Positions 2,330 to 41,128 of a stretch of 64,000 bases of DNA are shown here, piece after piece. The stretch's first letter is position 1; each line of letters starts with the position of its first letter. Source of the stretch: Spirochaetia bacterium (GTDB lineage Bacteria > Spirochaetota > Spirochaetia > SZUA-6 > Bin103); contig CBDCDL010000001.1 in the NCBI GenBank assembly GCA_965215345.1, positions 448,251 to 512,250 of the forward strand, written 5' to 3'. A program made the position numbers and the translations under genes. Under the pieces are notes generated by a model. It was not told the origin of the DNA. It did no database searches and saw only the letters and a program-made list of their open reading frames with translations.

Positions 2330-2451
2330 GTCGTTCCCCTCCACGCCCGGCAGGCACGGATGCCCGCCGGACAGGCGGAGTGTACTACGTATGCCGCCGC
2401 TGTCGGTATCCGCGTATCCGCGTCTGAGCGCTCCTCGCCCAGGACCGTCGC

Positions 2452-4322: not shown

Positions 4323-4329
4323 GCCTTGT

Positions 4330-4386
4330 CCCTGGTCACGCTTCGGCCCTGGTCACGCTTCGGCCCTGGTCACGCTTCGGCCCTGG

Positions 4387-4397
<11 letters not shown>
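4330..4397. repeat. Intergenic tandem repeat, ~4 copies of a 17-bp unit (cctggtcacgcttcggc) between the DUF58 stop and the MoxR stop/start region
   Basis: Direct reading of the sequence. Confidence 0.7.
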
Positions 4398-5385
<988 letters not shown>

Positions 5386-12030: not shown

Positions 12031-12037
12031 GGATGCG

Positions 12038-23612: not shown

Positions 23613-25073
23613 GTGCGTGTGGAGGGTATCGGGCGTGCTACCCTCGGCTGCGTGAGTGACGGAACCAATCTGGAACGGCTCGACGCCGAGCGGCGCCTGT
23701 TCGTCGACCTGCTCGACGTCGCCCGCCGCGACAACGTGAGCCGCACCTTCCACCAGGCGCGCAAGCACGGCCTGCCGGTCATCGCCCAGGAAGAGCCGTG
23801 GGAGCGGATGGGCGGCATGACCGCCTCGGTCATCCACGACGACGAGGAGGGCGTCTTCAAGGCGTGGTACATGGCCGGCATGTATGCCCCCGACAAGGAG
23901 CACGTGCAGTGCTTGGCGCTGTCCGACGACGGCATCAACTGGACCAAGCCCGTGCTGGGCCTGCACGAGGCGCTCGGCAACACGGACAACAACATCGTCG
24001 TGCCGGCCGAGTACCACGACGGCAGGGACCACTTCGAGACGATGATGAAGGATCCCATGGATCCCGACCCGGAGCGCCGCTACAAGGCGATCGGCTGGGC
24101 CAGCTACGACTGGGACGGGCCGCTGAGCGGGATCTATACCGGCACGTCGCCCGACGGCATGCGCTGGACCTTCACCCCGGAGCCGATCATCCGCTACCAC
24201 CCGCGGCCCGGTACCGCCGACCTGGGGCCGATCGGCGACGCGCAGGCGATGATGATCGACACGCGGCGCACGCGCTACGTGGCGATGCTGCGCGGTGCGG
24301 GCAATCATCCCGGCTGGCGGGTCATGTCGGTCAGCAAGGACTTCGTCACCTGGACCAGGCCGGAGCGCTTCCTGTTCCAGCTCAACCACGAGGAGTCGCT
24401 GTACAACAACAACGGCTTCGTCTACGGGGCGCAGTACCTGGGCATCCTGACCCACTTCGACCGGCGCGCGGAGCACCAGTCGCAGACCCTCCGGCTGCTG
24501 ACCAGCCGCGACGGCGACGTGTGGATGCGGGCGCCGGCGGCCGAGTCGCTGGTCGGGCTGGGCGAGGTCGGCGACTGGGACCGCTTCCAGATCATGCTCA
24601 CCGGCGCGCCGCCGGTTCCGGTCGGCGATCGCCTGCATATCTACTACCGCGGCACCTCGCGCCGCCACAACAAGGTGGTGGGCGAGTTCGAGCCCCGGAT
24701 CGACCCGGACCAGGAGCGCGGCGGCATGTCGATCGGGCTGGCCACGCTGCGGCTGGACGGCTTCGCCTCCATCGACGCCAGCTACGACGGCGGCGCCATC
24801 ACGACGGTGCCGTTCGACTTGGCCGGAGCCGAGTTGCACGTCAACGCCAAGTGCGACTTCGGCCGCATCGGGGCGGAGCTGCTCGACGAGGGGTACCGCC
24901 CGATCCCGGGCCATGCCGCCGACGACTGCATCGCAGTCAGCGCCGATGCCACCGACCAGGTCATCCGCTGGCGCGGAGACGCGGCGGGCCGGCCGCTTTC
25001 GGCCATCACCGCGCCGGTGCGGATCCGCTTCCACATGGCCAACTCCCGCCTCTACAGCTACTGGCTGCAGTGA
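23613..25073 (+). CDS. Beta-propeller glycoside-hydrolase-like protein, paralog 3
   Basis: Same family as the genes at 6908 and 8479 (SDDGINWT, SPDGMRWT, SRDGDVWM). The start codon is uncertain (GTG at 23613). Confidence 0.55.
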   Translation: MRVEGIGRATLGCVSDGTNLERLDAERRLFVDLLDVARRDNVSRTFHQARKHGLPVIAQEEPWERMGGMTASVIHDDEEGVFKAWYMAGMYAPDKEHVQCLALSDDGINWTKPVLGLHEALGNTDNNIVVPAEYHDGRDHFETMMKDPMDPDPERRYKAIGWASYDWDGPLSGIYTGTSPDGMRWTFTPEPIIRYHPRPGTADLGPIGDAQAMMIDTRRTRYVAMLRGAGNHPGWRVMSVSKDFVTWTRPERFLFQLNHEESLYNNNGFVYGAQYLGILTHFDRRAEHQSQTLRLLTSRDGDVWMRAPAAESLVGLGEVGDWDRFQIMLTGAPPVPVGDRLHIYYRGTSRRHNKVVGEFEPRIDPDQERGGMSIGLATLRLDGFASIDASYDGGAITTVPFDLAGAELHVNAKCDFGRIGAELLDEGYRPIPGHAADDCIAVSADATDQVIRWRGDAAGRPLSAITAPVRIRFHMANSRLYSYWLQ

Positions 25074-25119
25074 CGTCTCGAACCACGGGGCTACCCGGAA
25101 CCCCACCAAGGAGCACCGC

Positions 25120-26634
25120 ATGATCACCGTCCGGAACAGCGTCCCCAACCCCGTCGTCGAAGAGGCGGTCCTGTTCCCGTTCGACACCTACAGTTGCCCG
25201 TTCTCGGCCGGGCTCCGGCTGCAGCTCATACCGGGCAAGATCCCCGGCCGCGGCAACCCCATCGTCGTCGCCACCGGCGAGCCGGGGGCGCCCGACGACT
25301 TCACCACCCGCTTCTACGGCACGGTCATCCCCATCGACGGCGAGTTGCGCATGTGGTACCTGGCCCGGAGCACCCTGGACGCGGACGGCAGCAACGGCGG
25401 CCAGCTCCGCTGCTGCTACGCCACCAGCACCGACGGCGTCCACTGGGACAAGCCCGACCTGGGCCTGATCGAATTCAACGGTAGTAAGCACAACAACATC
25501 GTCAACCTGCGTGCCGGCCGCTGCGACTTCGCCGCCCTGCCGGTGATGTACGAGCCGGACGACCCGGACCGGGCGCGGCGTTTCAAGTGCGTCTTCGAGA
25601 GCGAGGCGTACGGCAACCAGTTCGCCGTCGCCTACAGCGCGGACGGCCTCAACTGGACCGAGTCGCCTGCCAACCCGGTCGGCCCCGGCCTGGAGCAGAC
25701 CGGGCTGATCCGCCACAATGGCTGCTACTACGTCAACGGCCAGGGCGGCGCGCACTACACCACGGGTCGGGCGCTGGCGACCTTCGCCTCCTACGACTTC
25801 GAGACCTGGACGCAGGCGTCCTGCCTGGGCTTCCGCCGCGACATGGTGCCGCCGGAACCGCTGCTCTACGATCCGCTCTCCTCGGCGCCGAAGGCCAGGT
25901 GGAACCAGAGCGAGGAGGTGCACCTGGGGGCCGGCCTCTGGGACCGGGGCAACGTGATCCTGGGCATCTACGACATCTGGCACGGCACGCCCACCAGCGA
26001 CCGCCAGCTCATCTCCATGGACCTGGGCCTGCTGGTCAGCCACGACGCCCTGCACTTCTCCGAGCCGATCAAGGACTTCCCGATCCTGCCGGCCTACGAG
26101 GAGGCCGGCGCGGTGGTCGGCAAGCCGCCCACGGTCAGCCACGGCCAGGGCATGATCAACTGGGGCGACAAGACCATGCTGTGGTACGAGGCGTGGGGCA
26201 ACCTGCCGGTGGAGGTGCGCCTTGCCACCTGGGAGCGCGACCGGATCGGCTACTTCGAGGCGATGCGCGGCGAAGGCGGCCACCTGGTGACGTGTCCGCT
26301 GGCCGGCGCCACCGAGTTCAGCGCCAACGTCGGCGGCCTTGGCCCGTACACGGAGCTGCGTTTCGAGCTGCTGGACGAGGGCTTCCATCCGCTGCCCGGC
26401 TTCAGCGGCGCCGACGCCGCGGTGCTCACCGGGCTGGAAGGAGCGGGAGAAGGCCAGGAGGACCTGGTCCCGGGTCAGCAGAGCCAGCGGGAGGCCGCGC
26501 CGGCCGCCGGACTGCGCGAGCCGATCCGCTGGCAGCGCCCCCTCCCGGCCGACGCCGGCGCGCTGCGGCTGCAGGTCACCTTCGCCGGCATCCGCCCCGA
26601 GGACGGCCAGCTCTACGCGATCTACGCCCGCTGA
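25120..26634 (+). CDS. Beta-propeller glycoside-hydrolase-like protein, paralog 4
   Basis: AAGGAG ribosome-binding site 7 nt upstream of the ATG. Blade motifs STDGVHWD and SADGLNWT. Confidence 0.6.
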   Translation: MITVRNSVPNPVVEEAVLFPFDTYSCPFSAGLRLQLIPGKIPGRGNPIVVATGEPGAPDDFTTRFYGTVIPIDGELRMWYLARSTLDADGSNGGQLRCCYATSTDGVHWDKPDLGLIEFNGSKHNNIVNLRAGRCDFAALPVMYEPDDPDRARRFKCVFESEAYGNQFAVAYSADGLNWTESPANPVGPGLEQTGLIRHNGCYYVNGQGGAHYTTGRALATFASYDFETWTQASCLGFRRDMVPPEPLLYDPLSSAPKARWNQSEEVHLGAGLWDRGNVILGIYDIWHGTPTSDRQLISMDLGLLVSHDALHFSEPIKDFPILPAYEEAGAVVGKPPTVSHGQGMINWGDKTMLWYEAWGNLPVEVRLATWERDRIGYFEAMRGEGGHLVTCPLAGATEFSANVGGLGPYTELRFELLDEGFHPLPGFSGADAAVLTGLEGAGEGQEDLVPGQQSQREAAPAAGLREPIRWQRPLPADAGALRLQVTFAGIRPEDGQLYAIYAR

Positions 26635-26959: not shown

Positions 26960-27436
26960 GACCTTCAAGGTGTTTCCAATAGACAACAACAGAAGGAGGG
27001 TCCTTGAAAAGCAAGGGATCGAAAAACAGGAAATTTCGTTTATACACATTATGCATGAATCTGAACATGGGTTGCATGTCAGGCAGGAAAAAAACGCAAG
27101 AAATGTCGCTGTTCAAGGAATGCGCTGAGAATTACGAAGATGATCGTTTTCATGATTTACATACTCAACGGTTTTCCCAGGATATAAGAGCGGATGTAAT
27201 CTGACGCACCGTGAGTGACCTTGCCAGCGAGACTCTGGCCTGCGTAAGCAGAGCTATGAGGGGAGCTGGTACGGTCACTTGCTTGGTCCAGCACCGCAAC
27301 TGTATTATTGTGACAAGTGCTGGTTCTGGTAAGACGCATGCTATGGAGTCTCTAAGCGGTGATTTGTTTCGTTCGGCTTGTGGGATCCCGTTAGGGACTG
27401 TTACACGAGGTCGATCTCAAGGAGAGAATCAAGAAC

Positions 27437-28354
27437 ATGCAACAGATGAAGGATTCGAAATTGACGCGAATCGGAGTGTTCTATGACGGAAGTTACTTCT
27501 CACATGTGAGCAACTATTACTGCTACGACCACCAGCGGAAGGCGCGCATCAGCATTTCCGGCCTGCACGATTTCATACGGGAGGAAGTCGCGAAGAACGA
27601 GCAGGCAGACGCTCGCTATTGCCAGATCGTGGATGCGCATTACTTTCGGGCGCGGATGTCCGCCGCTGACGCCCAGGAACGGGACGCCCTGTATGGTGAA
27701 CGGGTCTTTGAGGACGTTCTCATCAACGCCGGGGTTACGACCCACTTCCTGCCAACCACGTCGCGCGGGGAAAAGGGCGTCGACGTCTGGCTGGCCCTCG
27801 AAGCGTTCGACCTCGCCATCCACAAGCAGTTCAATGTCGTCGTTCTGGTTGCCGGAGACGGTGACTACGTGCCGCTGGTTCGTAAGCTCAATACGCTTGG
27901 GGCGAGAACGATGGTCACCGCATGGGACTTCAAGTTCAGCGATGGCAGCGGCCAGGAGCGGGAGACCAGAACGTCCCAGTTCTTGATCAACGAGGTCACC
28001 TACGCGATCATGATGGACCGCATCATCGATGACCGGTCGCGCAGCCAGGACCGTATAGTCAACAACCTGTTCTTGGCCGCGGCCCAACCGCCTGCTCCGC
28101 GCCGTGTGCAGCCCGCGGCGGCCATCTCGGATGAGCTGCAAGCGGGTGTCATACAGAACATCAAGGATGGCTACGGATTCATAGCTCCCGATTCCGGCGG
28201 CGAGAACCTGTTTTTCCACTGGACGGGAGTGAGAAACGAAGACTTCGAGGAGCTGCGGATCGGCGAACTGGTCCATTTCATCGTCGGCAGCAATGACCGT
28301 GGCCCGTGCGCGGTCGACGTGAGGCGAGTGGAGAACACGAATGCGGGAAGGTAG
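27437..28354 (+). CDS. NYN-domain (LabA-like RNase) protein fused to a C-terminal cold-shock domain
   Basis: NYN blocks (IGVFYDGSY..., EKGVDVWLALEAFD, VVVLVAGDGDYVPLV). The C-terminus carries the S1-like CSD motif GVIQNIKDGYGFIAPDSGGENLFFHWTGV. A good AAGGAG ribosome-binding site precedes the start. Confidence 0.7.
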   Translation: MQQMKDSKLTRIGVFYDGSYFSHVSNYYCYDHQRKARISISGLHDFIREEVAKNEQADARYCQIVDAHYFRARMSAADAQERDALYGERVFEDVLINAGVTTHFLPTTSRGEKGVDVWLALEAFDLAIHKQFNVVVLVAGDGDYVPLVRKLNTLGARTMVTAWDFKFSDGSGQERETRTSQFLINEVTYAIMMDRIIDDRSRSQDRIVNNLFLAAAQPPAPRRVQPAAAISDELQAGVIQNIKDGYGFIAPDSGGENLFFHWTGVRNEDFEELRIGELVHFIVGSNDRGPCAVDVRRVENTNAGR

Positions 28355-28748
28355 GCGAAGGGGACTGCGCGTGACCTACTCAGTCATCTCCGCGACCGCT
28401 CGCAGTAACGGGACTCCGGCGCATGTCGGTGGTGCAAATGGTGTCGCCGAGCGCCTCGCGGTGCAGGTCGTCGGTCGCTCGTGCAGGAGGTGTGGATGCG
28501 AGCGTCGGCTTTGACGTGACGTTGGTCTGCGGGGCCGTGGAACTGTTCGGTTTCCTCGGTCAGGCTGAGCGCCCAGCACGACGTCGGACGGGATCGTCAC
28601 CGCCGTCGTGGACAAAGGTGACCAACCATGCTGCTTTCTCATCGACGGACCACTACCGCGGCACTCCCAATAGCCTGGATGGGTGCGCCGCGCATGCCAG
28701 GTGAGTTGAGAGCCCGATTGCCGGGATGTGGGCCCCGGTGCGTGTCGC

Positions 28749-29213
28749 TTACTCGATCAGCTCCACGATGGCGCCCAGCTCGGCGACGAATCGCTCGTGC
28801 GCCGAGCGGAACGCCGCCAGGGTGGTAGGAATTCGATTCTGCACAATCTGAATGCGGTCCGGGTTGAGCCGCGTGCCGTATAGGTTGCGGAACATGTGGC
28901 GAAACGCGCGCAGCTCATGGATGTCCTGTGCGAGCGATCGATCCAGGAGGCGGGGCCGCAGGTCCTCGATCTCGATCGTCATGCGTTCCACGAGCTCGCG
29001 GTGCCATACCGACGGCGGCAAGTCATTCTCGAAGAACCGGGAGACCCGGAGGAAGTAGGACTCCAGCGCGTTGTAGATGTTGTGAATGGTGTAGGCCAGC
29101 GCCGCCCAGTCCAACTCATCGGTCGCTCCGTGCCGGATGCGGCCGTCGGCTTTCAGGTTGGTCTCGGCAAGGTCGCCGAGAACCTCGGTATCACCGTGCA
29201 ACTCAGCGATCAA
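28749..29213 (-). CDS. HEPN-fold protein (NTase substrate-binding, HI0074-like), partner of the upstream NTase
   Basis: An all-helical ~150-aa protein immediately downstream of a minimal NTase. The family call is tentative. Confidence 0.5.
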   Translation of the reverse strand: MIAELHGDTEVLGDLAETNLKADGRIRHGATDELDWAALAYTIHNIYNALESYFLRVSRFFENDLPPSVWHRELVERMTIEIEDLRPRLLDRSLAQDIHELRAFRHMFRNLYGTRLNPDRIQIVQNRIPTTLAAFRSAHERFVAELGAIVELIE

Positions 29214-29237
29214 TATTGCGACGCGCGCTGCTCTCGT

Positions 29238-29600
29238 TCATACATGAGCCTGCCGTCGATGTTCGACAGCCCGGCTGATCACCGGACTGGCGTTCGGTAG
29301 ATCGACGACGTCGACCTTGAACGGGCTGTCGAGCGCTATCGAGACCAGACGGAGATACTGTGGTGAGTCAACGGCCAGATCCACGTCCGGCTCCCGGTTG
29401 CCCAGGTCGCCGGTAGCCAGCGAACCGAAGAGCACGACCGTGCGGAGGTCGGGGTCCGCCTCAAGGAAGCACTTCGTGAGCCGCTCGGCTTCCGCGAGGC
29501 CGGCCGCTCGCCATTCTCGGCGCATGTGTTCGAGATGAGCCGATCTCTTCGGCGCTCTCGCTGCTTTGAGCCCTTCGGCTACACCACGAAGGAATCGCAT
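29238..29600 (-). CDS. Minimal nucleotidyltransferase (MNT-like)
   Basis: The LFGSLATGDLGNREPDVDLAV NTase motif. The longer ORF extension to 29738 is derived from a fucosidase gene fragment and is probably not translated. Confidence 0.6.
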   Translation of the reverse strand: MRFLRGVAEGLKAARAPKRSAHLEHMRREWRAAGLAEAERLTKCFLEADPDLRTVVLFGSLATGDLGNREPDVDLAVDSPQYLRLVSIALDSPFKVDVVDLPNASPVISRAVEHRRQAHV

Positions 29601-29639
29601 TCCGTTCCTCGTCCACAGCCGGGAGAACGTAGTCGGCTG

Positions 29640-29860
29640 AGACACCGCGTGTCGAGAGTGTCCGCCTTCGATCGAACGCGCTACGCGACGACATTCGTCG
29701 CCGAAGTCCAGGCGGATCACCATCACGGTGCCGGTCATTCGGTTGACCGCTCGCTTCCGTCGTGTAGCAGCGTCGCGCGCTCAGGAGCGACCCGCAGCGG
29801 ATTGAGAGTCAGGCCGGTGCTCTGCGGGGCCGTCGAGCATCTGCCGCACCAATGATTCCG
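29640..29860 (-). pseudogene. Decayed duplicate of the 3' end of the GH29 fucosidase gene
   Basis: About 200 bp is a clear but diverged copy of 30795-31010, with an internal deletion. It encodes ...STGLTLNPLRVAPERATLL...MTGTVMVIRLDFG, against ...STGLILKPLRIAPDRATLL...MAGTVMVIRLEFG in the intact gene. Confidence 0.5.
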
Positions 29861-30344
29861 GCTCAACAAGCACGTCCGAGACACGCTTCCCTAAAGTTTC
29901 AGCGATTGCGGCTAATGTCTTGACCCTGGGCGTCTGTTCGCCGTTCTCGATCCGTACCAGCGTAACGCGTCCAATGTTAGCCGCTCGTGCTAGCTGCTCT
30001 TGAGTCAATCCCGCCGAGTCTCGCAACGTCCTGAGCCGCTCGCCGAGGGTCCGCCTGCCGTGCATGGCTATCGCCTCAACGGTGGACCGGTAGGATTCGT
30101 CACAGTAGTGGCGTGCGAAATCCCAGGGAATCTCAATGTGTTCACCGTTGACCGTGTTGAGAATCATCTGGTATGGGTTCGGCAATTCAAGACTGGACAG
30201 GTCCGTAGCATCACTGATCTCGTCGATATCGCTGTAGGGTATCATGCCTTTGCACCCATCGGCGAAGCTCAACTGGACTCCATTGGCCACTATGTTGGCG
30301 ACCATCATCATCCGATCGGCGTTCTTTACCAAAACCGCATCCAT
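29781..30344 (-). CDS. DUF2442 domain protein with a C-terminal XRE-type HTH
   Basis: N-terminal DUF2442-like region plus the HTH LTQEQLARAANIGRVTLVRIENG. It is paired with an upstream DUF4160 gene. Confidence 0.6.
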   Translation of the reverse strand: MDAVLVKNADRMMMVANIVANGVQLSFADGCKGMIPYSDIDEISDATDLSSLELPNPYQMILNTVNGEHIEIPWDFARHYCDESYRSTVEAIAMHGRRTLGERLRTLRDSAGLTQEQLARAANIGRVTLVRIENGEQTPRVKTLAAIAETLGKRVSDVLVEPESLVRQMLDGPAEHRPDSQSAAGRS

Positions 30345-30347
30345 CGC

Positions 30348-30584
30348 CTATCCTCCATGAATGGCTTCCCACGTGTTCCTGATGTCTTCGACGTGTGTCG
30401 CATATACCTTCAAGATGTCCCTGAAGTTTCCGGGTGGCAGATCGTCCATATAGGTTCCGCCGTTCAGTTCAATGCGGCACACATCTTCGTTGCCAACCCA
30501 AACGTGTACGTGTGGCGGCTCAAAGCTGTTCTCCCGCGTGTTGATAACGAACCGAAACTGTCCTTCCATGACGACGGTCGGCAC
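30348..30584 (-). CDS. DUF4160 domain protein
   Basis: EPPHVHVW motif. Four nucleotides separate it from the DUF2442 gene. Confidence 0.65.
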   Translation of the reverse strand: MPTVVMEGQFRFVINTRENSFEPPHVHVWVGNEDVCRIELNGGTYMDDLPPGNFRDILKVYATHVEDIRNTWEAIHGG

Positions 30585-30785
30585 TCGGAGTCCTCGGACA
30601 GCGTAGCCACGTTTCCCCCGCGCATCGCGATCCTTGATGTATCATAGAGCGATACATGCAGTCAAGCGTCGCTCTGGCAACAGGATGCAGCCTCGGCCGC
30701 GTCCTGGACGCGCGCGCGTGAGGCCGAAGACGGATCGACAACGAAGGCAGTCCCGCGGGCAGCACTGCCGAGCCTCGTGGTGGTA

Positions 30786-32054
30786 TTACGCGGCCACTTC
30801 GGCGCCGAACTCCAGGCGGATCACCATTACGGTGCCGGCCATGCGGTTGACCGGCAGGCCGCTCAGGCGGAGGTAGGGTGGCTCCTGCCAGTGCCAAGGC
30901 GTGGTCTCCACCGTGACTCGGAGCTCGCTTCCGTCGTTCAGCAGCGTCGCCCGGTCGGGAGCGATGCGTAGCGGCTTGAGGATCAGGCCGGTGCTCTGCG
31001 GGGCCGCGGGGAGGTGGACATAGACGGTGTTCCCGTTGCGCGTGACCAGCACGCTGTCGCGCGGCACATGGTGCTCGCCTCCGTGCATGCCGATCGCGTC
31101 GTCCTCGATCAGCGTCGAGGCGGGCATGGTGCCCTCGAACGCCTCCCGGACCTTGCGGTACCAGTTGCCCACCTGCGCGAGCGTGCTCACGTTCTCCACC
31201 GGCAGGCTGCCGTCCGACTTGGGGCCGACGTTGAGGATGTAGTCGCCGCCCATCGCCAGCACGCGGTCGATGCTCTCGATGATGTGGCGGTCGCTGTAGT
31301 AGTCCTCGTCGGAGCGATAGCCCCAACTCTCGCGGCCGAGCGCCTGCACGGCCTGCGTCGGCGCGCCGAACTCGCGGGCTTCGGGCACGTGCCGTTCCGG
31401 CGTGCCGTAGTCGCCGGGGCTCGGGCCGCGGTCGTTGATCAGGATGCCGGGCTGCAGATCGCGCACCATCTCGTTCAGGCTTGGGTCGTGGTGCTCGGCC
31501 ACGTTCACGTCCCAGAAGAAGTCGCGCAGCGGGCCGTAGTTGGTGCAGAGCTCCCGCACCTGGCCGCGGACGAACTCCCAGTAGGCGGCGAGGTCCGGCT
31601 GGTCGCCGGGGCGCGGACCGAACATCTCGTGGTGGCGCCCCAGGTTGGGGTAGTGCGGGTGGTGCCAGTCGGGGCAGGAGTAGTAGAAACCGAGCGCGAT
31701 GCCGCGCCGCTCGCACGCCTCGGCAAGCTGGGCCAGGATGTCCCGGCCGTACGGCGTGTGCATCACCGAGTAGTCGGTTAGCTTCGTGTCCCACAGGCAG
31801 AACCCGTCGTGGTGCTTCGTGGTGATCACCACGAAGCTCATGCCGGCGCTCTCGGCCGCGACCAGCCACTCATCGGGATCGAAGCGGTCCGGGGCGAAGC
31901 GGTGGACAAGCTGCTCGTAGTCGCGCCGCTTCATGTCGGACCGCCAGAGGATCTGCTCGTGCCACGCCGGGATCGCGTACAGCCCCCAGTGGATGAACAT
32001 CCCCAGCCGCTCCGTGAAGTACCGGTCGCGCCCGTCGCCGAATGGTCTGATCAT
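30786..32054 (-). CDS. Alpha-L-fucosidase (GH29)
   Basis: GH29 blocks (MFIHWGLYAIPAW, TKHHDGFCLWDT...). Length is 422 aa. Confidence 0.85.
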   Translation of the reverse strand: MIRPFGDGRDRYFTERLGMFIHWGLYAIPAWHEQILWRSDMKRRDYEQLVHRFAPDRFDPDEWLVAAESAGMSFVVITTKHHDGFCLWDTKLTDYSVMHTPYGRDILAQLAEACERRGIALGFYYSCPDWHHPHYPNLGRHHEMFGPRPGDQPDLAAYWEFVRGQVRELCTNYGPLRDFFWDVNVAEHHDPSLNEMVRDLQPGILINDRGPSPGDYGTPERHVPEAREFGAPTQAVQALGRESWGYRSDEDYYSDRHIIESIDRVLAMGGDYILNVGPKSDGSLPVENVSTLAQVGNWYRKVREAFEGTMPASTLIEDDAIGMHGGEHHVPRDSVLVTRNGNTVYVHLPAAPQSTGLILKPLRIAPDRATLLNDGSELRVTVETTPWHWQEPPYLRLSGLPVNRMAGTVMVIRLEFGAEVAA

Positions 32055-32343: not shown

Positions 32344-33267
32344 ATGAATTCCTCAGTCCTGACGCCCGCGTCGTTCTCGCCTTCGACGACGTCCGTCGAA
32401 GACTTCGACTTCACCGCTGGGCAGGTGGACGTCGACGCCATGACGGAGGCGTACCGCAGGCACGGCGCCGTGGTGATGCGCGGGTTGTCCGAGGACTACG
32501 TGGCGGACCTGCTGCAGGACATGGAGGCGATCCTGGAGCAGAGCCAGGCGCTTCTTCCCGAGGCGGCGGCCGCCAAGCATCACGCCAACGCCGTGACGAC
32601 GCCGGACGGGACGCTGTTCAACGCCGACCCCAGCGATCCGGGGCGCATGGTCGTCAACACGCTGCGGCTGAACGCGATGATCTCGAGCGCGTTCCTCCGC
32701 TCGCTGGTCAACCCCGAGTTGCTGGAGCTGCTGGCGGCGCTGATCGGTCCGGACATCGAGCTGTGGAAGTGGGGGCAGTGCGTCTACAAGCAGCCCAGGA
32801 CGGGCGTGCCGAAGTCGCTGCACCAGGACGGGTACTACTTCGAGCACAAGCTGCAGAGCCCGACGGCGGTGCTCAGCTACGCGGTCGACGTGGACATGGG
32901 CAACGCGCCCCTGTACGTAGTGCCCGGCTCGCACGAGCTGGGGCTGGTCCGGCATGAGGACGACCGCTGGGCCGGCTTCGCGCTCAACGATCCCGTGTGG
33001 TGGGAACGCGCCGTGCCGATCGAGGGCAGTGCCGGGGACGCCGTGATCTTCCACACCTGCACCATTCACGGCTCGCCGGACAACCGCTCGGACCGGCCGC
33101 GCCCGGTGTTCATCAAGCGCTACCGGCGCGCGGACGACTTCTGCGTGATCGACGTGGCCAACGTCGCTGACCGGCAACGCGCCGAGCAGGCGCCGGTCGC
33201 CGCCAAGACCGAGGACGACTGGGGCCTGATGGTACGCGGCATCCGTCGCTATCAGCCGGCGGAATAG
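32344..33267 (+). CDS. Phytanoyl-CoA dioxygenase (PhyH) family protein
   Basis: SLHQDGYYFEH...VVPGSHE blocks. The ATG at 32344 is chosen over the longer ORF start at 32293. Confidence 0.7.
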   Translation: MNSSVLTPASFSPSTTSVEDFDFTAGQVDVDAMTEAYRRHGAVVMRGLSEDYVADLLQDMEAILEQSQALLPEAAAAKHHANAVTTPDGTLFNADPSDPGRMVVNTLRLNAMISSAFLRSLVNPELLELLAALIGPDIELWKWGQCVYKQPRTGVPKSLHQDGYYFEHKLQSPTAVLSYAVDVDMGNAPLYVVPGSHELGLVRHEDDRWAGFALNDPVWWERAVPIEGSAGDAVIFHTCTIHGSPDNRSDRPRPVFIKRYRRADDFCVIDVANVADRQRAEQAPVAAKTEDDWGLMVRGIRRYQPAE

Positions 33268-33320
33268 AGCACAAAGCCGATCGCGCTCAGGGAGATCCAC
33301 GCTTGTCGCCGCCACGTACC

Positions 33321-33339
33321 TGCACTACGCTGTAGTGCA
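33321..33339. promoter_or_regulatory. Perfect inverted repeat TGCACTAC-gct-GTAGTGCA abutting the vapB start codon (putative operator)
   Basis: Read directly. Confidence 0.45.
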
Positions 33340-33624
33340 ATGCAGAAGAACGAAGTCTACAGTTGGCGGCTCGACGCGGCGCTGAAAGAGGCGCTGGAGA
33401 GGGCTGCTCGCTCCGAAGACACGAGCGTCGCGAGCTTGCTGCGAACGATCGTCACCGACTGGCTTGCGCGCAACTCGGCGAATGGGGACGACGCGGCGTC
33501 GCAGTTCCGGATGCGCAACCAGGCGCTCCGCTGTGCCGGATCGATCCGGGGGGGCGATCCGAATCGAGCGGAACAGGCAAGCAGTCGCGTGCGAGCGGCG
33601 TTGCAGGATCGACGTGCGCGTTGA
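33340..33624 (+). CDS. vapB: Ribbon-helix-helix (CopG/VapB-like) antitoxin
   Basis: The RHH-like N-terminus YSWRLDAALKEALERAARSEDTSVASLLRTIV. It overlaps the PIN-domain gene. Confidence 0.65.
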   Translation: MQKNEVYSWRLDAALKEALERAARSEDTSVASLLRTIVTDWLARNSANGDDAASQFRMRNQALRCAGSIRGGDPNRAEQASSRVRAALQDRRAR

Positions 33625-34033
33625 GGGACTTGCCGATACCGGCGCTCTGCTCGCCTTCCTCGATGAGGACGACAAGTGGCACGAACGATGTGTCGCGGCA
33701 TTCGAGCGCCTGCGTCTCCCGCTCGGGACGACCGCTGCGGTTCTCGCCGAGCTGTTTCACCTGCTCGGCCACTCGGGAGAGCTGACTGCAGCATGGGGAT
33801 TGATCAGGTCGGATGCGGTCACCGTTCTTCCCATCGTCGATGGCGACCTTCCGGCTCTCGATGAACTGATGAAGCGTTACGCCGACCGTCCCATGGACTT
33901 CGCGGACGCCACACTGGTGCATGCCGCGTACCGCGAGGGGATCACGACGGTGTTCACCATTGACCATGACGACTTTCAAACGTACCGAATCGGCAGGCGG
34001 CGTCGGTTCCGGATCGCCCCTGAGCGCTGGTAG
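33614..34033 (+). CDS. vapC: PIN-domain toxin VapC
   Basis: Conserved acidic residues in ...DTGALLAFLDEDD... and FADATLVHAAYREGITTVFTID. GTG start overlaps the vapB 3' end. Confidence 0.7.
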   Translation: MRVEGLADTGALLAFLDEDDKWHERCVAAFERLRLPLGTTAAVLAELFHLLGHSGELTAAWGLIRSDAVTVLPIVDGDLPALDELMKRYADRPMDFADATLVHAAYREGITTVFTIDHDDFQTYRIGRRRRFRIAPERW

Positions 34034-34051
34034 ATCGGCTTGGCAGCTATG

Positions 34052-34063
34052 GTACTATAGTAC
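34052..34063. promoter_or_regulatory. Perfect 12-bp palindrome GTACTATAGTAC 8 bp upstream of the RHH-NTase gene start (putative operator)
   Basis: Read directly. Confidence 0.4.
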
Positions 34064-34070
34064 TATTACG

Positions 34071-34661
34071 ATGGGAGCCCTGTCCGGCCGGTTCGTGGTG
34101 CGCGTGTCTCCGCGGCTGCACGGCGCCTTGCGAGAGCGGGCTGGTCGGCTGGGTGTGTCACTGAACGAGTTGTGCCGTGGCGCACTTGCGGCTGCGGTTG
34201 AGGCGGAACCCGTCGGCACCGTGGCCGAGTCGGCCTTGCCGGACCACGGGATGCTGGCCCGGATCACCGAGTCCTATCGGCCGGACATCGTCGGGGTGAT
34301 CCTGTTCGGCTCCCGTGCGCAGGGCACCGCGAGGCCGGACTCCGACTGGGATGTCGTGCTGGTCATGACGCCGACGACGGCGCTCTCACGCGATCTGTAT
34401 CGGACGTGGGATGAGCGCATCGATCGCGGCACGCGGGAGCCGTTGGTGAATCCGCACTTCATCCATATGCCATCGCCGGCGGGCGGTGGATCGTTGTGGT
34501 TGGAGGCGGCGTTGCATGGACGGGTGCTGTGGCAGCGCGACGCCGGTCTGACGCGCCGCTTGGCGAGCGCTCGGGAGCGGATAGCGGCGGGTCAGGTGCG
34601 CCGGCGCGCCGCCTACGGAACCCCGTACTGGGTACACGAAGAGCCTGATGTACAACCCTGA
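34071..34661 (+). CDS. Fusion protein: N-terminal RHH/HicB-like DNA-binding domain + nucleotidyltransferase (MntA-like)
   Basis: N-terminus GRFVVRVSPRLHGALRERAGRLGVSLNELCRGAL is RHH-like. It is followed by the NTase motif ILFGSRAQGTARPDSDWDVVLV. Confidence 0.6.
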   Translation: MGALSGRFVVRVSPRLHGALRERAGRLGVSLNELCRGALAAAVEAEPVGTVAESALPDHGMLARITESYRPDIVGVILFGSRAQGTARPDSDWDVVLVMTPTTALSRDLYRTWDERIDRGTREPLVNPHFIHMPSPAGGGSLWLEAALHGRVLWQRDAGLTRRLASARERIAAGQVRRRAAYGTPYWVHEEPDVQP

Positions 34662-35067
34662 CCTTACCGCGGACTACCTGCGGCGCGCCGCCAGCAGGCT
34701 CAAGGCGATCGAGGTGCTGCTGGCCGAGTCGAGTTGGGCGGATGTCGTGCGGGAGTCGCAGGAGGTGGTCGAGATCTGTCTCAAGGCACTGTTGCGGCAC
34801 GCCCGCATCGAGGTTCCGCGGCTGCATGACGTGAGTCCCGTGCTCGAGGACAACCGCGATCGCCTCCCGGCGGCGGCCCTGCCTCACCTGGATCGTCTGA
34901 GCGAAGTGTCCCGTTCGCTGCGGCGTGACCGTGAGCTGGCCTTCTATGGAAGCGAGGATCTGACGCCGAACGAGTTCTACCGCCAGGAGGATGCGGAGAC
35001 GGCGCTGCAGGACGCCACCTTCGTGTACGGCACCGTGGTCGAAGCGGTGCATGAACCGGAGAGATAG
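34648..35067 (+). CDS. HEPN domain protein (toxin partner)
   Basis: Helical ~139-aa HEPN-like protein. It overlaps the upstream NTase gene by 14 nt. Confidence 0.65.
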   Translation: MYNPDLTADYLRRAASRLKAIEVLLAESSWADVVRESQEVVEICLKALLRHARIEVPRLHDVSPVLEDNRDRLPAAALPHLDRLSEVSRSLRRDRELAFYGSEDLTPNEFYRQEDAETALQDATFVYGTVVEAVHEPER

Positions 35068-35072
35068 CGCTC

Positions 35073-35954
35073 TTATTGCGCCGCCTCCTGGTCCGGTCCG
35101 GATGGCTCCTCGGCGGCGCTGATCCATATCCGCGTGAGCCGCGCGAGTTCGCCTACGGCTCCGGAGCCGTCGTCCACGAAGCGCGTGATCCGTCCGAACC
35201 GCAGGTCGAGGTACTCGTGCGCCATCAGGTTGCGCAGTGCTGCCAGCGGCTGCAGGCGTCCGGACAGCACCGCGAAGTCGGGCAGAGTTTCCAGTTCGGC
35301 GAGGATCTGACCGTACGTGAAGGGGACCGGGTGCTGCGCGGACGACAGCACGATCTTGCCGATGTCGATCGCGGCGTTGATCAGGATCTCCACCCAGCGG
35401 TCGAGGTTGCGCCGCAGGTCGCGGTCGGATCGATAGCGATGCTGCGTGACCTCCCGGAATCGCTCGCGATCCTCCAACTCGGTGTCGATGAAGTCGACGA
35501 TCCGCTCGAGCCGACTCTGATCGACCGGTGAAAGGGAGCCGCTGCGGTCCCGTATCACGCGGTACTCGCGCTCGGTCTGCAGGAAGTCGATGGCCACCGA
35601 GGTGACCGCGAGGAAGTATCGCGAGTAGAGACCTCCGTCCCTCATCAGGACCACGCGTCCGGACGTGAGCGCCGCGGCGCACACCGTCGCGGGAGCCCGG
35701 TTCAGGACCAGGAGCTCCACGTTGCGCTGCGTCACTCGCTCCAGGGCGATCTGGATCTCGGTCTCCCGGTCGACCTCCCGTTCCCGCTCGATCTCGATCC
35801 GGCCGTCGGACTCGCCATAGACCGCCACGTCGACGTCGGAGTCCGGCCGCAACCTGCCGGAGCAGGCAGATCCGAACAGAACGGCGAACGTCAGGTGGGG
35901 GAAGCGCTCCAGCTCCGAGCCGACCGCCTGGGCGATCTCATCGGCTGCCGACAT
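35073..35954 (-). CDS. Single-chain MNT-HepT fusion: N-terminal nucleotidyltransferase + C-terminal DUF86/HepT HEPN domain
   Basis: N-terminus has LFGSACSGRLRPDSDVDVAV (NTase). C-terminus has the R-x4-HxY motif RNLMAHEY (HepT). Confidence 0.65.
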   Translation of the reverse strand: MSAADEIAQAVGSELERFPHLTFAVLFGSACSGRLRPDSDVDVAVYGESDGRIEIEREREVDRETEIQIALERVTQRNVELLVLNRAPATVCAAALTSGRVVLMRDGGLYSRYFLAVTSVAIDFLQTEREYRVIRDRSGSLSPVDQSRLERIVDFIDTELEDRERFREVTQHRYRSDRDLRRNLDRWVEILINAAIDIGKIVLSSAQHPVPFTYGQILAELETLPDFAVLSGRLQPLAALRNLMAHEYLDLRFGRITRFVDDGSGAVGELARLTRIWISAAEEPSGPDQEAAQ

Positions 35955-35993
35955 CGGATCCGTCGTCGCACGCCGGGAGGGGTGGAGCGCCGC

Positions 35994-36668
35994 TCATGCC
36001 AGCCGCTCCCACCGGTCGGGGTCGATGGCGCCGGTCACCGGGCGGCCCGCGAAGAAGTCCTCCAGCGCGGCTACCGTGGCGTCGCCGATGCGGCGGTGGC
36101 CGTACCGTCCGTGGCCGGCCACGTCGCCGGCGCCGACGATGCCGACGATGGCGCCGGTCAGGTACTGCTCGCCCACCGGGATCTGCGGCGAGCGCCAACC
36201 GCCGGTGCGGCGCACGTGCAGGGCGTGATCCATCAGGCGTTGCGCGCTCATGATGATCAGGCCCAGAGTGGTCTCGGCTACGTTGTAGGCGATCGGCACC
36301 GTTGAGGTGAACACGCAGATGCGGCGCGGGGCGATGTAGTCCGTCCAAACTTGGTCCAGCATGCGGCGCACCGATCCGGCCGAGTGGGCGATGATCCGCA
36401 GCCGGTCGGCCGCCTCCATGATCGCGGGCGTGATCGATGGCGGTCCGCCGGACGCCGGGGCCGCCCAGCCGGTGATGAGCGCATCGTGGCCGCCGATCAG
36501 GGAGCAGATCTCCGCCTCGGTCAGGTCGCGGTCGCCCTCGTTGCGGGTCACCTCGAAAGCGCCCTGCAGGCGCGTCCAGGACTCGGGGGTGAACACCTTC
36601 GCCGTGTGCTCGCGGGCGGGCAGGTGCAGGACGCGCGGCCGGCGCGCCGCGGCCGTGTCAGCCGGCAT
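35994..36668 (-). CDS. D-isomer-specific 2-hydroxyacid dehydrogenase-like protein, shorter than usual and possibly truncated
   Basis: NAD-binding Gly-rich segment GIVGAGDVAGHG. At 224 aa it is shorter than the typical ~310-aa family members. Confidence 0.4.
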   Translation of the reverse strand: MPADTAAARRPRVLHLPAREHTAKVFTPESWTRLQGAFEVTRNEGDRDLTEAEICSLIGGHDALITGWAAPASGGPPSITPAIMEAADRLRIIAHSAGSVRRMLDQVWTDYIAPRRICVFTSTVPIAYNVAETTLGLIIMSAQRLMDHALHVRRTGGWRSPQIPVGEQYLTGAIVGIVGAGDVAGHGRYGHRRIGDATVAALEDFFAGRPVTGAIDPDRWERLA

Positions 36669-38112
36669 GGTGTGCTGCCTTGCAGCCGATCTCGGTGTCA
36701 CCGGTGGCGCGCTGCCAGCCGCGGATGCGGGCGGTCAGGTCGCGGCTGTGCTCGGCATGCTCCGGGAGGAAGGCCAGGTTGGCGGTCTCTCCCGGGTCGT
36801 CGTTCAGGTCGTAGAGCTCGTGCTGACCGGCGGGGCTCAGGCAGAACTTCCACCCCTCGGGCGTGATGATGCAGCGCACGGCGTCGGCCAAGTCGGCCAG
36901 CCCGGCCTCGCGCGTGGTCACCTCGGCCAGGTAGTCGGGCAACGGGTCGCGCTTCAGGTCCTCGTGGACGAGGTAGTTGATGCCCGTCCACTCCACGAAC
37001 GCGGGCCGTGGCGGCGGGTCGGCGCCGTCCAGCCACGGGGTGAGCGACGTGCCCTGCAGGTGCTCGGGCGCGGCGAGGCCCAGCTCGTCGAGCACGGTCG
37101 GCACGACGTCCACGTGACCCACCGGCGCGTGCACGTGCCGGGCTTTGCCCTGCCCGGGCCGGCTGATCAGCAGCGGCACGCCGATCGACTCCTCGTACAT
37201 CAGGTTCTTGCCGAAGAGCTGGTGGCTGCCGGCCAGCTCGCCGTGATCGGCGGTGAGGATCACCAGCGTGTCGTCGGCCGCGCCCGAGGCGTCGAGCTGG
37301 TCGAACACCCGGCCGAGCGCGCGGTCGACCTGCGTGCACAGGCCCCAGTAGCGCTGGATCAACAGGCGCCACGCCAGGTCCGAGCGCAGGGCGATGCCGT
37401 CCTTGCGGTGGTGCAGCACGGACAGGTGCTCCAGCAGCGCCTTGCGGGGCTGGTCCGGGCCGGGCGGATGGTGCCAGTTGTCCGGCAGCGGCACCTGGTC
37501 GAAGGGATGCAGGTCGTCCAGGGGGCCGGACAGCGGATCGTGCGGCTCGTAGAAGCAGAGGGTGAGGGCGAACGGCCGGTCCGCGTGGCGGCGGATGAAG
37601 TCGCACGCCTTGGTGGCGATGTTGGACGGACCGCCCAAGTGTTCGGGGATGGCCGGCCGGTCCGCCTTGCCGAAGCGTACGCCGTCGGCAGGCGTGAGCC
37701 CGTGCGCACGCAGCAGGTGGTCGGGAGCGACGTCGTTGAAGTCGAGTTCGTCGATGCCACAGGCGCGCGGCGCCGGCCCGTCAATGTAGCGGTGGCCGCC
37801 GCTCCGGCCGAAGAACCCGCACACCCAGCGATCGTCGAGCAGATCGGTGAGGCAGGGGATGTGGTCGTGCATGGGATGCTCGCCCAGCGTGACCTGGCCG
37901 TTGTCGTGCGGCCAGGTGCCGGTGAACAGGCAGGCGCGCGCCGGACCGCACACCGGCTGGGCGCAGTAGGCGCGGTGGAAGACGGCGCTCCGCTCTGCCA
38001 ACGCGTTCATGCGCGGCACCTGGATGCGGTCGTTGCCGTGGGCGGCCAAGGTGGAGCGCGCCTGCTGATCGGTGACGATCAGCAGCAGGTTGGGCGGTGT
38101 GCGGGATGCCAT
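36658..38112 (-). CDS. Sulfatase (formylglycine-dependent arylsulfatase family)
   Basis: Blocks LLIVTDQQ, the C-x-P-x-R motif (CGPAR) and TADHGE. Confidence 0.85.
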   Translation of the reverse strand: MASRTPPNLLLIVTDQQARSTLAAHGNDRIQVPRMNALAERSAVFHRAYCAQPVCGPARACLFTGTWPHDNGQVTLGEHPMHDHIPCLTDLLDDRWVCGFFGRSGGHRYIDGPAPRACGIDELDFNDVAPDHLLRAHGLTPADGVRFGKADRPAIPEHLGGPSNIATKACDFIRRHADRPFALTLCFYEPHDPLSGPLDDLHPFDQVPLPDNWHHPPGPDQPRKALLEHLSVLHHRKDGIALRSDLAWRLLIQRYWGLCTQVDRALGRVFDQLDASGAADDTLVILTADHGELAGSHQLFGKNLMYEESIGVPLLISRPGQGKARHVHAPVGHVDVVPTVLDELGLAAPEHLQGTSLTPWLDGADPPPRPAFVEWTGINYLVHEDLKRDPLPDYLAEVTTREAGLADLADAVRCIITPEGWKFCLSPAGQHELYDLNDDPGETANLAFLPEHAEHSRDLTARIRGWQRATGDTEIGCKAAHHAG

Positions 38113-40171: not shown

Positions 40172-40205
40172 GCCTGGAGGTCGCGGGTAGCTCCCGCCTG
40201 CGCGG

Positions 40206-40592
40206 TCACCAGACCATGTCGGCGCCGAGCGCCCCGATCGCGGGATCGGGCGTCGCGACCTTGATCTTCTGGACGATGGCCTGCGCGGCGATCATCCGGT
40301 CGAAGGGATCGCGGTGAAGGTGGGGGAGGGAGCCTGCGCGCAACGCATGCGCGCCGGCGATGGTCAGTTGGCGAAAGCCGTCCTGAGCCAACCGGTCGTC
40401 CCACTCCTCGATGACGTGGCTGCCGGCCGGGTAGTGTCCCAGCCGGTGTCGCGTGGCGATCTCCCAGGCGCTCGCGGCGCTGACCCACACCTTGTTGTGC
40501 GGGTCCTCCAGCAGTCCGCGGACACGGCCGCTGAGCCTGTCGGGATCCGCCCACGTCCACAGCAGGGTGCAGGTGTCCAGCAGGAGCCTCAT
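40206..40592 (-). CDS. vapC: PIN-domain toxin VapC
   Basis: MRLLLDTCTLLW... start with acidic PIN residues. A 4-nt overlap links it to the upstream antitoxin gene. Confidence 0.7.
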   Translation of the reverse strand: MRLLLDTCTLLWTWADPDRLSGRVRGLLEDPHNKVWVSAASAWEIATRHRLGHYPAGSHVIEEWDDRLAQDGFRQLTIAGAHALRAGSLPHLHRDPFDRMIAAQAIVQKIKVATPDPAIGALGADMVW

Positions 40593-40828
40593 CCACCCCC
40601 GTCCCAGGCCGCGAGCTCGGCTTCGTCGAGCGGCTTCAGGAACGAGTCGGGCACCGCGCCGTCGCGGTCGCGATGGCGGCCCAGCTCTCGCGGAGGAGGC
40701 TCCTGGAGCGGCACGAGCCGCACGCAGCGCACGCCCGCCTTGGCGATCACGATCTCCTCGCCGGCGAACGCCCGGTCGACCAGTCGGGCGAGCTGCGGCA
40801 CGGCCTCGTGCACGTTCAGCATCGTCAT
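40589..40828 (-). CDS. Phd/YefM-type antitoxin
   Basis: MTMLNVHEAVPQLARLVDRAFAGEEIVIAKAGVRCVRLVPL is a typical prevent-host-death family N-terminus. Confidence 0.6.
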   Translation of the reverse strand: MTMLNVHEAVPQLARLVDRAFAGEEIVIAKAGVRCVRLVPLQEPPPRELGRHRDRDGAVPDSFLKPLDEAELAAWDGGG

Positions 40829-41128
40829 GCCGGCAGCATAGCGCGCCTCGATCGGTCGGTCGACGAATTTCCGTTGCACCGGATCCTGGTGATTCGGGAC
40901 GGCCGTATCGTCGAGGACGGCACGGACCGGCAACTGCTCGAACGGGGCAGCCTGTACCGCGGGATGTTCACGGCCAGGCCGATTGGTACGAGCGATGCTG
41001 ACGGCAGCCTGCGGCTCGGAGTCGCGGTCCCGGAACGGTCGTTTGGTCGTTGCGCGCGGTCGGGGGATGGGCGATGATCCGGCCATCCCGGGATCGGGCG
41101 ATCGCCCGGTAACGACAAGGAGAGAGCG

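Follow-up and report, generated by a model that had tools for sequence, protein, structure and literature searches.

A chromosomal cluster of probable toxin–antitoxin modules in a Spirochaetia bacterium, with an RHH-nucleotidyltransferase/HEPN pair and a single-chain MNT–HepT protein

In HepT toxins, the HEPN partners in type VII toxin–antitoxin (TA) systems, the tyrosine of an RX4HXY motif serves as the acceptor of AMP (PMC13000451, PMC11586414), and only class I HEPN proteins carry this canonical motif (PMC11586414). A different pattern was described for HEPN-T proteins, in which an aspartate replaces the motif histidine and an alternative histidine lies upstream (Anantharaman et al., 2013; PMC3710099). 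The minimal nucleotidyltransferase (MNT) antitoxins are reported to lack a DNA-binding domain (Yao et al., 2020; PMC7641770), and the ribbon–helix–helix (RHH) domain has been noted as a fusion to HEPN, in the paREP1 family, and not to MNT (Makarova et al., 2009). HEPN domains of the DUF86 type are 'occasionally fused to MNT' (Anantharaman et al., 2013; PMC3710099), and a single-chain protein of this organization, FhepTA (SO_1440, 276 aa) of the Shewanella oneidensis prophage CP4So, has been characterized (Yao et al., NAR 2026; PMC13000451). It self-oligoAMPylates Y240 through D41/D43, its MNT domain blocks dimerization of the HEPN domain, and two extra cysteines act as a redox switch; C163 and C270 are unique to FhepTA among the Shewanella homologues (PMC13000451). 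We describe here a gene cluster in a 64 000-nucleotide stretch of a Spirochaetia bacterium genome (contig CBDCDL010000001.1, positions 448,251 to 512,250; hereafter the window), in which five intact open reading frames (ORFs) make up three modules within 33321–35954, a span of 2.6 kb. These are probably three independent TA modules, namely a vapBC pair, a nucleotidyltransferase (NTase) with an N-terminal RHH domain encoded together with a class II HEPN protein, and a single-chain MNT–HepT protein of the FhepTA kind.

The cluster is chromosomal and occupies the gap into which a PhyH-family gene and a 2-hydroxyacid dehydrogenase gene converge; its features are listed in Table 1. The G+C content of the window is 67 %, and third codon positions are 73–87 % G+C across the five ORFs. 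Domains were assigned by Pfam and NCBIfam profile searches against curated cutoffs, and motifs were read straight from the sequence. The original prediction, made from the letters alone, was of three TA modules in 2.6 kb, and five intact genes are indeed present; the domain assignments, gene overlaps, two palindromes and catalytic motifs that it named all proved correct on re-analysis. It also held that both the RHH-NTase and the fused MNT–HepT architectures are unusual, and this has to be qualified: no description of the RHH-NTase family was found in the literature searched, the MNT–HepT fusion had already been published, and neither is rare. The locus is thus an ordinary TA cluster that holds one modestly new variant, the RHH-NTase/HEPN pair.

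Table 1. Coordinates of the features of the TA cluster and of the other NTase/HEPN pairs, as positions in the window
Feature	Position	Strand	Remarks
Inverted repeat TGCACTAC-GCT-GTAGTGCA, putative VapB operator	33321–33339	.	Operator function predicted
vapB-like antitoxin gene, 94 aa, N-terminal RHH	33340–33624	+	RHH_1 E=0.013, residues 10–44
vapC-like PIN toxin gene, 139 aa, GTG start	33614–34033	+	PIN PF01850 E=2.2e-11
RHH-NTase/HEPN operator; palindrome GTACTATAGTAC at 34052–34063 inside ATGGTACTATAGTACTAT	34049–34066	.	DNA binding predicted
RHH-nucleotidyltransferase gene, 196 aa, putative antitoxin and autorepressor	34071–34661	+	Pfam HicB/RHH E=5e-7; Polbeta/NTP_transf_2
Class II PF05168 ('HEPN-T') HEPN gene, 139 aa, putative toxin	34648–35067	+	PF05168 E=1.3e-17
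MNT–HepT fusion gene (FhepTA-like), 293 aa	35073–35954	−	Polbeta E=4e-15; HepT-like E=6e-10
Classical class II pair: minimal NTase (10308–10646) and PF05168 HEPN ORF (10546–11028)	10308–11028	+	
NTase (29238–29738) and HepT-like_2 (PF20797) protein (28749–29213)	28749–29738	−	In lower-G+C patch

The RHH-NTase has its RHH domain at about residues 5–45, a disordered linker at 46–54 and an MntA-like NTase domain at 58–190; the Pfam matches span residues 5–39 (HicB/RHH) and 65–113 (Polbeta/NTP_transf_2). An NTase with an N-terminal RHH/HicB-like domain had been proposed from the start, and the catalytic motif of this one consists of G80-S81 and D90-S-D92-W-D94, with D92 and D94 intact. The possibility that the NTase motifs of the cluster are degenerate can be set aside, the GS-x10-DxD motif being intact in both proteins that contain one. 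The NCBIfam MntA model gives the RHH-NTase 35.7 bits, below its cutoff of 60. The AlphaFold2 (AF2) model (predicted local distance difference test score, pLDDT, 84) has two helices after an N-terminal segment, the disordered 46–54 linker and an alpha/beta domain, and the solved structures closest to the latter in Foldseek are the MntA antitoxins 7ae9_G, 7bxo_A and 6m6u, the matches also including the aminoglycoside nucleotidyltransferase (ANT) ANT(4′) and the kanamycin nucleotidyltransferase (KNTase). A HicAB identity was considered and rejected: the match to the Pfam HicB model is confined to profile positions 17–51, which are the RHH part, and the neighbouring genes encode PIN and HEPN proteins.

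This family is populous. A word-indexed search returned 43 relatives of 184–215 aa with the same HicB(RHH) plus NTase architecture, and an exhaustive profile search at E≤1e-30 found at least 432 clusters (50 % identity), nearly the whole profile being covered in all 150 hits listed. Residues invariant in the family are F8, R11, L16, H17 and S30-L31-N32 in the RHH domain, G80, S81, S91, D92 and D94 in the NTase domain, and W143, G183, Y186 and W187 towards the C-terminus. Only weak NTase-core matches, to the candidate system PDC-S09, were returned by PADLOC; a tblastn search of 72,556 plasmids gave only NTase-core fragments, and pattern scans of IMG/VR a single weak match to the NTase core. Since MNT antitoxins have been reported without a DNA-binding domain, and RHH has been reported on HEPN and not on MNT, the RHH–MNT arrangement is best seen as a variant of a known module that lies outside the described subfamilies.

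The HEPN gene begins within the last 14 nt of the RHH-NTase gene, an overlap that had also been foreseen. An overlapping PF05168 HEPN gene (135–161 aa) follows the RHH-NTase gene in 25 of 25 loci examined, the window included, the copy in the related locus L001 being frameshifted. These loci come from metagenome-assembled genomes (MAGs) labelled Spirochaetia, Longimicrobiales, Vicinamibacterales, Deltaproteobacteria and Pseudomonadales and from unassigned metagenome contigs, and the genes around the pair differ and are unrelated between loci. Such constant pairing in unrelated neighbourhoods is typical of a mobile cassette of two genes. Among distant members the HEPN protein is 63–73 % identical where the NTase is 47–52 %, and this better conservation of the HEPN partner looks like the pattern usual for a toxin relative to its antitoxin.

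The 139-aa HEPN protein has no Rx4-6H-x-Y motif. It contains instead [R/K]89-x4-D94, within an invariant RRDRELAF block, and the residues invariant in its family are P57-R58-x-H60-D61, R92-R93-D94-R95-E96, T106 and Y111; at Y100, the position of the HepT acceptor tyrosine, three relatives have Cys or Thr. This bears on the suggestion, made in the original prediction, that the pair follows the logic of type VII HepT/MntA systems. One feature of those systems is present, an MntA-fold NTase with a GSX10DXD motif encoded immediately upstream of a HEPN gene. The other, a HEPN protein with RX4HXY (PF01934/DUF86), is found only in the fused protein and not in this PF05168 partner, and because the partner lacks the motif and its tyrosine is variable, type VII logic for the pair goes beyond the sequence evidence.

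The palindrome GTACTATAGTAC precedes the RHH-NTase gene as claimed, its last base lying at −8 from the ATG at 34071, and the operator lies 4–7 nt before the ATG. It occurs once in the window, and with two or fewer mismatches at least one match is found in 14 of 100 shuffles, so the palindrome of the window is not significant by itself; it becomes convincing because it is kept in relatives. The same or a covarying A+T-rich palindrome lies 0–11 nt before the start codon in most relatives, down to 37 % protein identity, in conserved or covarying forms that include GGTACTATAGTACC, AGTACCATGGTACT, GATATCATGATATC and GGTATCATGGTACC, and the core AGTACTATAGTACT is present in L026 and L028, the proteins of which are only 37–39 % identical to that of the window. 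Palindromes with arms of at least 7 nt are found in 63 % of the upstream regions of the family, compared with 14 % of 35-nt windows taken at random from the same loci, and none of these upstream regions has room for a Shine–Dalgarno sequence. The operator of the window contains the −10-like hexamers TATAGT and TACTAT. In L028 the order is TTGACG-17 nt-TACTAT-6 nt-ATG, and in L003, L019 and L020 it is TTGACC-17 nt-TATCAT-9 nt-ATG; these patterns put a predicted −10 element inside the operator and would make the transcript leaderless or nearly so.

The sequence features of the pair are consistent with the following scheme. An RHH dimer would bind the AGTACTATAGTACT-type operator over the −10 element of a leaderless or near-leaderless promoter, so that the RHH-NTase would regulate its own operon, while the MntA-like domain would keep the translationally coupled HEPN toxin inactive, most likely by nucleotidylylation or, alternatively, by simple complex formation. 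The HepT-type tyrosine is not conserved in the class II HEPN. We offer it as a possibility, held with somewhat less than even confidence, that the RHH-NTase/HEPN pair represents a widespread TA family in which one protein is both autorepressor, acting at a AGTACTATAGTACT operator on a leaderless promoter, and enzymatic antitoxin, a hybrid of type II and type VII. If this is true, the toxin, which has neither RX4HXY nor the acceptor tyrosine, would need to be neutralized at a different acceptor, for which T106 and Y111 are candidates, or by a different chemistry, and it would use the alternative His60 or Arg–Asp active site predicted in 2013.

Two other readings of the pair need to be weighed. 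The first is that the two proteins form a split nucleotidyltransferase on the model of HI0073/HI0074 or of kanamycin nucleotidyltransferase, in which the HEPN protein binds substrate or nucleotide, the RHH domain serves only in regulation and the target is a small molecule or a nucleic acid. PF05168 belongs to the nucleotidyltransferase substrate-binding clan, a role in antibiotic modification was left open by Makarova et al. (2009), and the missing Rx4-6H RNase motif and the ANT(4′) and KNTase matches of the NTase fit the same idea. An aminoglycoside NTase identity was nevertheless rejected on scores of 18.7–18.8 bits against NCBIfam ANT cutoffs of at least 340, as was a KNTase-like arrangement, whole-chain superposition on ANT(4′) giving a root-mean-square deviation of about 16 Å and a template-modelling (TM) score of about 0.27. 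The cloning record points away from it too: a genome-wide cloning screen picked out HEPN proteins without the motif as toxins, according to Anantharaman et al. (2013; PMC3710099). We consider a split enzyme quite unlikely, because the surroundings of the pair change from locus to locus, as expected of a mobile two-gene cassette, an RHH autorepressor with an operator over the −10 element is a hallmark of TA antitoxins, the HEPN protein is the better conserved of the two, and the HEPN gene alone of the pair is inactivated in L001.

The second reading reverses the polarity of the pair, making the NTase a toxin of the MenT/AbiEii type and the HEPN protein its antitoxin. NTase toxins occur in other TA families. 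The original MNT–HEPN proposal likewise listed MNT as a possible toxin and HEPN as a possible antitoxin (Makarova et al., 2009), whereas HEPN is the toxin in all characterized HEPN–MNT pairs (PMC13000451, PMC7641770, PMC11586414). An RHH domain on the NTase and the position of its gene ahead of its partner are both typical of antitoxins, and MntA antitoxins are the closest structural matches of the NTase. L001 tolerates a frameshifted HEPN gene beside an intact NTase gene, a combination that a cell would not survive if its antidote were HEPN; although a single case, it fits HEPN as the toxin. Reversed polarity is therefore very improbable, and we retain the assignment of the RHH-NTase as antitoxin and of HEPN as toxin.

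The third module is the single polypeptide, carrying an RNLMAHEY (Rx4HxY) motif, that had been described as an MNT–HepT fusion. Both domains are present in its uninterrupted ORF, the MntA-like domain at about residues 1–135 and the HepT domain at about 142–281 (Pfam Polbeta 14–106 and HepT-like 157–258), and the motifs are G28-S29-x10-D40-x-D42 and R241-NLMA-H246-E-Y248. The NCBIfam MntA model scores 65 bits (cutoff 60). The AF2 model is a single body (pLDDT 92.7, predicted TM score 0.86) in which the N-terminal domain superposes on MntA 7bxo_A (TM 0.78, 2.9 Å) and the C-terminal domain on HepT 7ae9_D (TM 0.85); the family profile matches MntA as well as HepT chains in 5yep, 6m6u, 7ae2 and 7ae9, from the two type VII systems that have been crystallized, and RNLMAHEY aligns with RNRLVHEY of the Aphanizomenon flos-aquae HEPN toxin chain 7ae9_A. 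A protein search found 317 homologues, more than 100 of them full-length (280–306 aa) with both domains and ranging from 94 % down to 60 % identity, with source names that include Spirochaetaceae and Gammaproteobacteria among others; the assembly index has no entry for the exact protein of the window. When 53 members were aligned, with Met1 omitted so that the numbering of the alignment is one lower than that used here, no variation was seen at G28, S29, D40, D42, E247 and Y248, and R241 and H246 were at least 90 % conserved. The view that a single-chain fusion is unusual thus gives way: this is a conserved family of a kind noted in 2013, and the single-chain MNT–HepT as a kind was already described and tested in 2026.

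A fused ORF could in principle arise from an assembly error or frameshift that joins separate mntA and hepT genes, and the original prediction recognized that the ORF might be two genes. Most MNT/HEPN systems do consist of two genes, and the fused and split forms in Shewanella share >90 % protein sequence similarity (PMC13000451). An artefact is refuted here by 293 codons without an internal stop, by the more than 100 independent full-length homologues in many assemblies and several taxa, and by the confident AF2 model across the junction (pLDDT 87–96 for residues 121–160); the stretch from codon 105 to codon 243 has no in-frame ATG either, and the chance that the fusion is spurious is negligible. 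Taking the mechanism from the experiments on FhepTA (PMC13000451), we would expect the MNT domain, through D40/D42, to AMPylate Y248 beside R241-x4-H246 of the protein's own HEPN RNase domain and also to hinder HEPN dimerization sterically, the protein remaining self-neutralized until a fall in ATP, degradation of the MNT domain or removal of the AMP. The fusion has no DNA-binding domain. Its gene follows the dehydrogenase gene by about 40 nt, in the same orientation, and the two are probably transcribed together. The HEPN and fusion genes converge with 5 nt between their stop codons (35065–35075) and no terminator-like hairpin between them, and a scan of 33200–36100 for intrinsic terminators found none; the two modules may interfere with each other's transcription or have overlapping antisense transcripts.

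The first module was predicted to be a VapB(RHH)–VapC(PIN) pair with a perfect operator palindrome at its start. The palindrome and the PIN gene are there, and the gene ahead of the latter fits a vapB in position and overlap, with an RHH match below the curated cutoff. The PIN match of VapC (44.8 bits, cutoff 23.6) is clear, its only sequence match in the PDB being Mycobacterium tuberculosis VapC26 (5x3t_B, E=0.0025), and vapC starts within the last 11 nt of the upstream vapB. The inverted repeat occurs once in the window and in none of 100 shuffles, and it directly adjoins the vapB ATG, which leaves no room for a Shine–Dalgarno sequence. As in type II pairs, VapB would bind and inhibit the PIN RNase VapC, and probably acts through the 19-bp inverted repeat to repress its own promoter, which is likely leaderless. 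Homology of the island with L005, L008, L009 and L010 begins exactly at the left edge of this repeat, at 33321. The interval between the PhyH stop codon and the vapB palindrome is about 460 bp in L005, L008 and L009 (e.g. L008 1786–2248) and about 57 bp in the window.

The closest relatives of the cluster in a genome scan with a nine-sequence alignment are in MAGs of 5–7.4 Mb labelled Spirochaetia, and comparison at the same site indicates that each of the three modules has been lost or has decayed independently. All three are present in the window, L008 and L009. L006, L007 and L011 have lost vapBC except for about 30 nt of the vapC 3′ end; L001 has lost vapB and the 5′ half of vapC, and has the frameshifted HEPN gene and intact NTase gene mentioned above. 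In L005 and L010 the fusion gene has been gutted by deletions, and L010 has in addition lost the operator and the N-terminal RHH region. In L010 (2935–3516) this last deletion leaves the NTase frame open upstream into the vapC 3′ region, and the NTase and the intact HEPN gene there may be expressed from the vapBC promoter.

The fusion gene probably has a longer history at this site. A dehydrogenase gene lies upstream on its strand even at 65–66 % fusion identity (L021 and L022); L021 (65 %) contains only the dehydrogenase, fusion and convergent PhyH genes, the last of these downstream of the fusion, and in L022 PhyH is located further upstream. At 62 % identity (L023 and L024) the context differs and the neighbours are unrelated. 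We think it likely that the fusion was resident first, and that two two-gene cassettes later entered the convergent intergenic gap. Such persistence raises the alternative that the fusion is a domesticated, vertically inherited RNase or RNA-processing factor, regulated and co-expressed with the dehydrogenase, and not a selfish or defensive TA system. Besides the gene order kept at only 65–66 % identity, the absence of a DNA-binding domain and of an obvious promoter of its own would suit such a role; so would its distribution, as no relative was found by tblastn among the 72,556 plasmids or in the IMG/VR pattern scans of viral contigs. Domestication is nevertheless unlikely, given the unrelated contexts of L023 and L024, the deletions in L005 and L010, which mark the gene as dispensable, the transposase genes that flank it in L021 and L022, and the conservation of all catalytic and acceptor residues of a self-neutralizing system.

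Several points weigh against reading the cluster as three TA modules. The RHH_1 match of VapB, at 15.9 bits, is weak and below the curated cutoff of 20.5, and the NCBIfam HepT model gives the fusion 43 bits against an equivalog cutoff of 60. A scan of 33200–36100 for strict sigma-70 consensus promoters found none, so the promoters claimed for the window are read from −10-like hexamers and from relatives such as L028. The absent RX4HXY motif and variable Y100 of the HEPN protein make type VII chemistry no more than a candidate mechanism for the pair, and no experimental study of a class II HEPN–MNT module was found in the literature searched. With its kept synteny and its absence from the plasmid and viral collections, the fusion resembles a mobile addiction module less closely than does FhepTA, a protein with which it was compared by published description. 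These points are reflected in the strength with which we hold to three TA modules, which remains the probable reading.

Other observations concern the neighbourhood. The window contains no tRNA gene and no integrase gene. The dehydrogenase gene next to the fusion (35994–36701, minus strand) encodes 235 aa, compared with 352 aa in L001, about 375 bp (L001 8055–8430) being missing; Pfam gives only a sub-threshold match to the catalytic domain, and it is probably an in-frame deletion pseudogene. Around this site L001 is rich in other genes of TA type and in mobile genes, encoding a group II intron reverse transcriptase, DUF433 and Phd/YefM proteins and a further PIN pair at 1–5000 and 11600–12400, and window positions 40203–40869 are homologous to the region of that further PIN pair. 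Two short segments of the window, 30876–30942 and 31479–31530, within a region homologous to an alpha-L-fucosidase gene, match L001 494–560 and 1797–1848 at 90–94 %; as the L001 segments flank the reverse transcriptase gene, this may be a small dispersed repeat.

Two further NTase/HEPN pairs had been predicted at 10308–11028 and 28749–29600, and both are real, the NTase ORF of the second extending to 29738. The true start of the HEPN gene in the first is probably near 10620, and that of the second NTase is probably internal, the domain lying at ORF residues 86–157. A recent duplication relating the two PF05168 pairs of the window (10308–11028 and 34071–35067) was rejected, the HEPN proteins being only 37 % identical over 46 aa and the NTases 31 % over 54 aa. 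The second pair lies in a segment (27000–30800) with a G+C fraction of 0.47–0.63, against 0.67 for the whole window, that looks separately acquired; it also contains genes for an NYN-nuclease plus cold-shock-domain (CSD) protein (27437–28354; Pfam NYN E=4e-18, CSD E=5e-14) and for a 187-aa protein with a C-terminal Xre-type helix–turn–helix (29781–30344, minus strand). Upstream of it, two long ORFs (486 and 573 aa; 23613–26634) have no Pfam match at E≤0.001.

We regard the RHH-NTase/HEPN family as a more useful lead than the fusion. It is a compact and well-conserved model system whose operator is obvious, whose candidate catalytic residues are invariant and whose predictions are clear, and it could show whether HEPN proteins without the motif act as RNases and whether they are modified by MNT antitoxins. 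The fusion adds to a published kind a distant, chromosomally fixed member without redox cysteines, and would be useful mainly as a natural comparison by which the general features of FhepTA (self-AMPylation and the block to dimerization) can be told from its redox switch. The mosaic of losses at one chromosomal site is a small natural experiment on which components go first.

Compared with known systems, the fusion is, as we read its sequence, a distant member of the FhepTA kind that has long been resident in the chromosome. The GS-x10-DxD motif is in nearly the same register (D40/D42 in the window, D41/D43 in FhepTA), R-x4-H-x-Y provides the predicted acceptor Y248 in place of Y240, and the fusion has, like FhepTA, neither a DNA-binding domain nor an internal start codon for the HEPN part. 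It differs in length (293 and 276 aa), in its charged junction (about residues 125–145, LQTEREYRVIRDRSGSLSPVD), which bears no resemblance to the hydrophobic FhepTA linker SAQNHFIIL, in being chromosomal and syntenic with a dehydrogenase gene and not prophage-borne, and in its occurrence in Spirochaetia-type MAGs. It has two cysteines in all, C31 and C92, which lie in the MNT domain; with none in the HEPN domain, a redox switch of the C163/C270 type cannot operate, and since those cysteines are unique to FhepTA among its Shewanella homologues their absence does not speak against the wider architecture. Both NTases of the window share the MntA fold and the GS...DxD motif with the type VII HepT/MntA systems, and the HEPN domain of the fusion has RX4HXY and superposes on HepT structures, although it is encoded by one gene and not two. 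The core of the RHH-NTase superposes best on the MntA chains of the type VII systems (S. oneidensis SO_3166/3165, A. flos-aquae and Legionella pneumophila HEPN/MNT), whereas the protein itself carries an extra DNA-binding domain and its partner is of PF05168 and not PF01934.

The RHH-NTase/HEPN pair is closest in layout to the class II HEPN–MNT modules (COG1708/COG2250, PF05168; Makarova et al., 2009; Anantharaman et al., 2013), in which an NTase gene likewise runs into a PF05168 HEPN gene and the distribution is likewise scattered and mobile-looking; it departs from them in that the NTase is not minimal (about 80–150 aa) but 196 aa long with a family-wide N-terminal RHH domain, and in the conserved palindromic operator. 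The HEPN protein fits the HEPN-T pattern, with Asp for His in [R/K]89-x4-D94 and the conserved upstream H60. The likeness to HicAB is limited to the RHH motif, the region matching the C-terminal part of the Pfam HicB model, and although NCBI labels some members of the family 'HicB family antitoxin', the RHH-NTase has neither the N-terminal domain of HicB nor a HicA partner. The vapBC module shows no notable difference from type II VapBC systems such as M. tuberculosis VapBC26, in which an RHH antitoxin gene likewise overlaps the PIN gene and an inverted repeat lies at the promoter or start, beyond its weak RHH match and a transcript that is probably leaderless.

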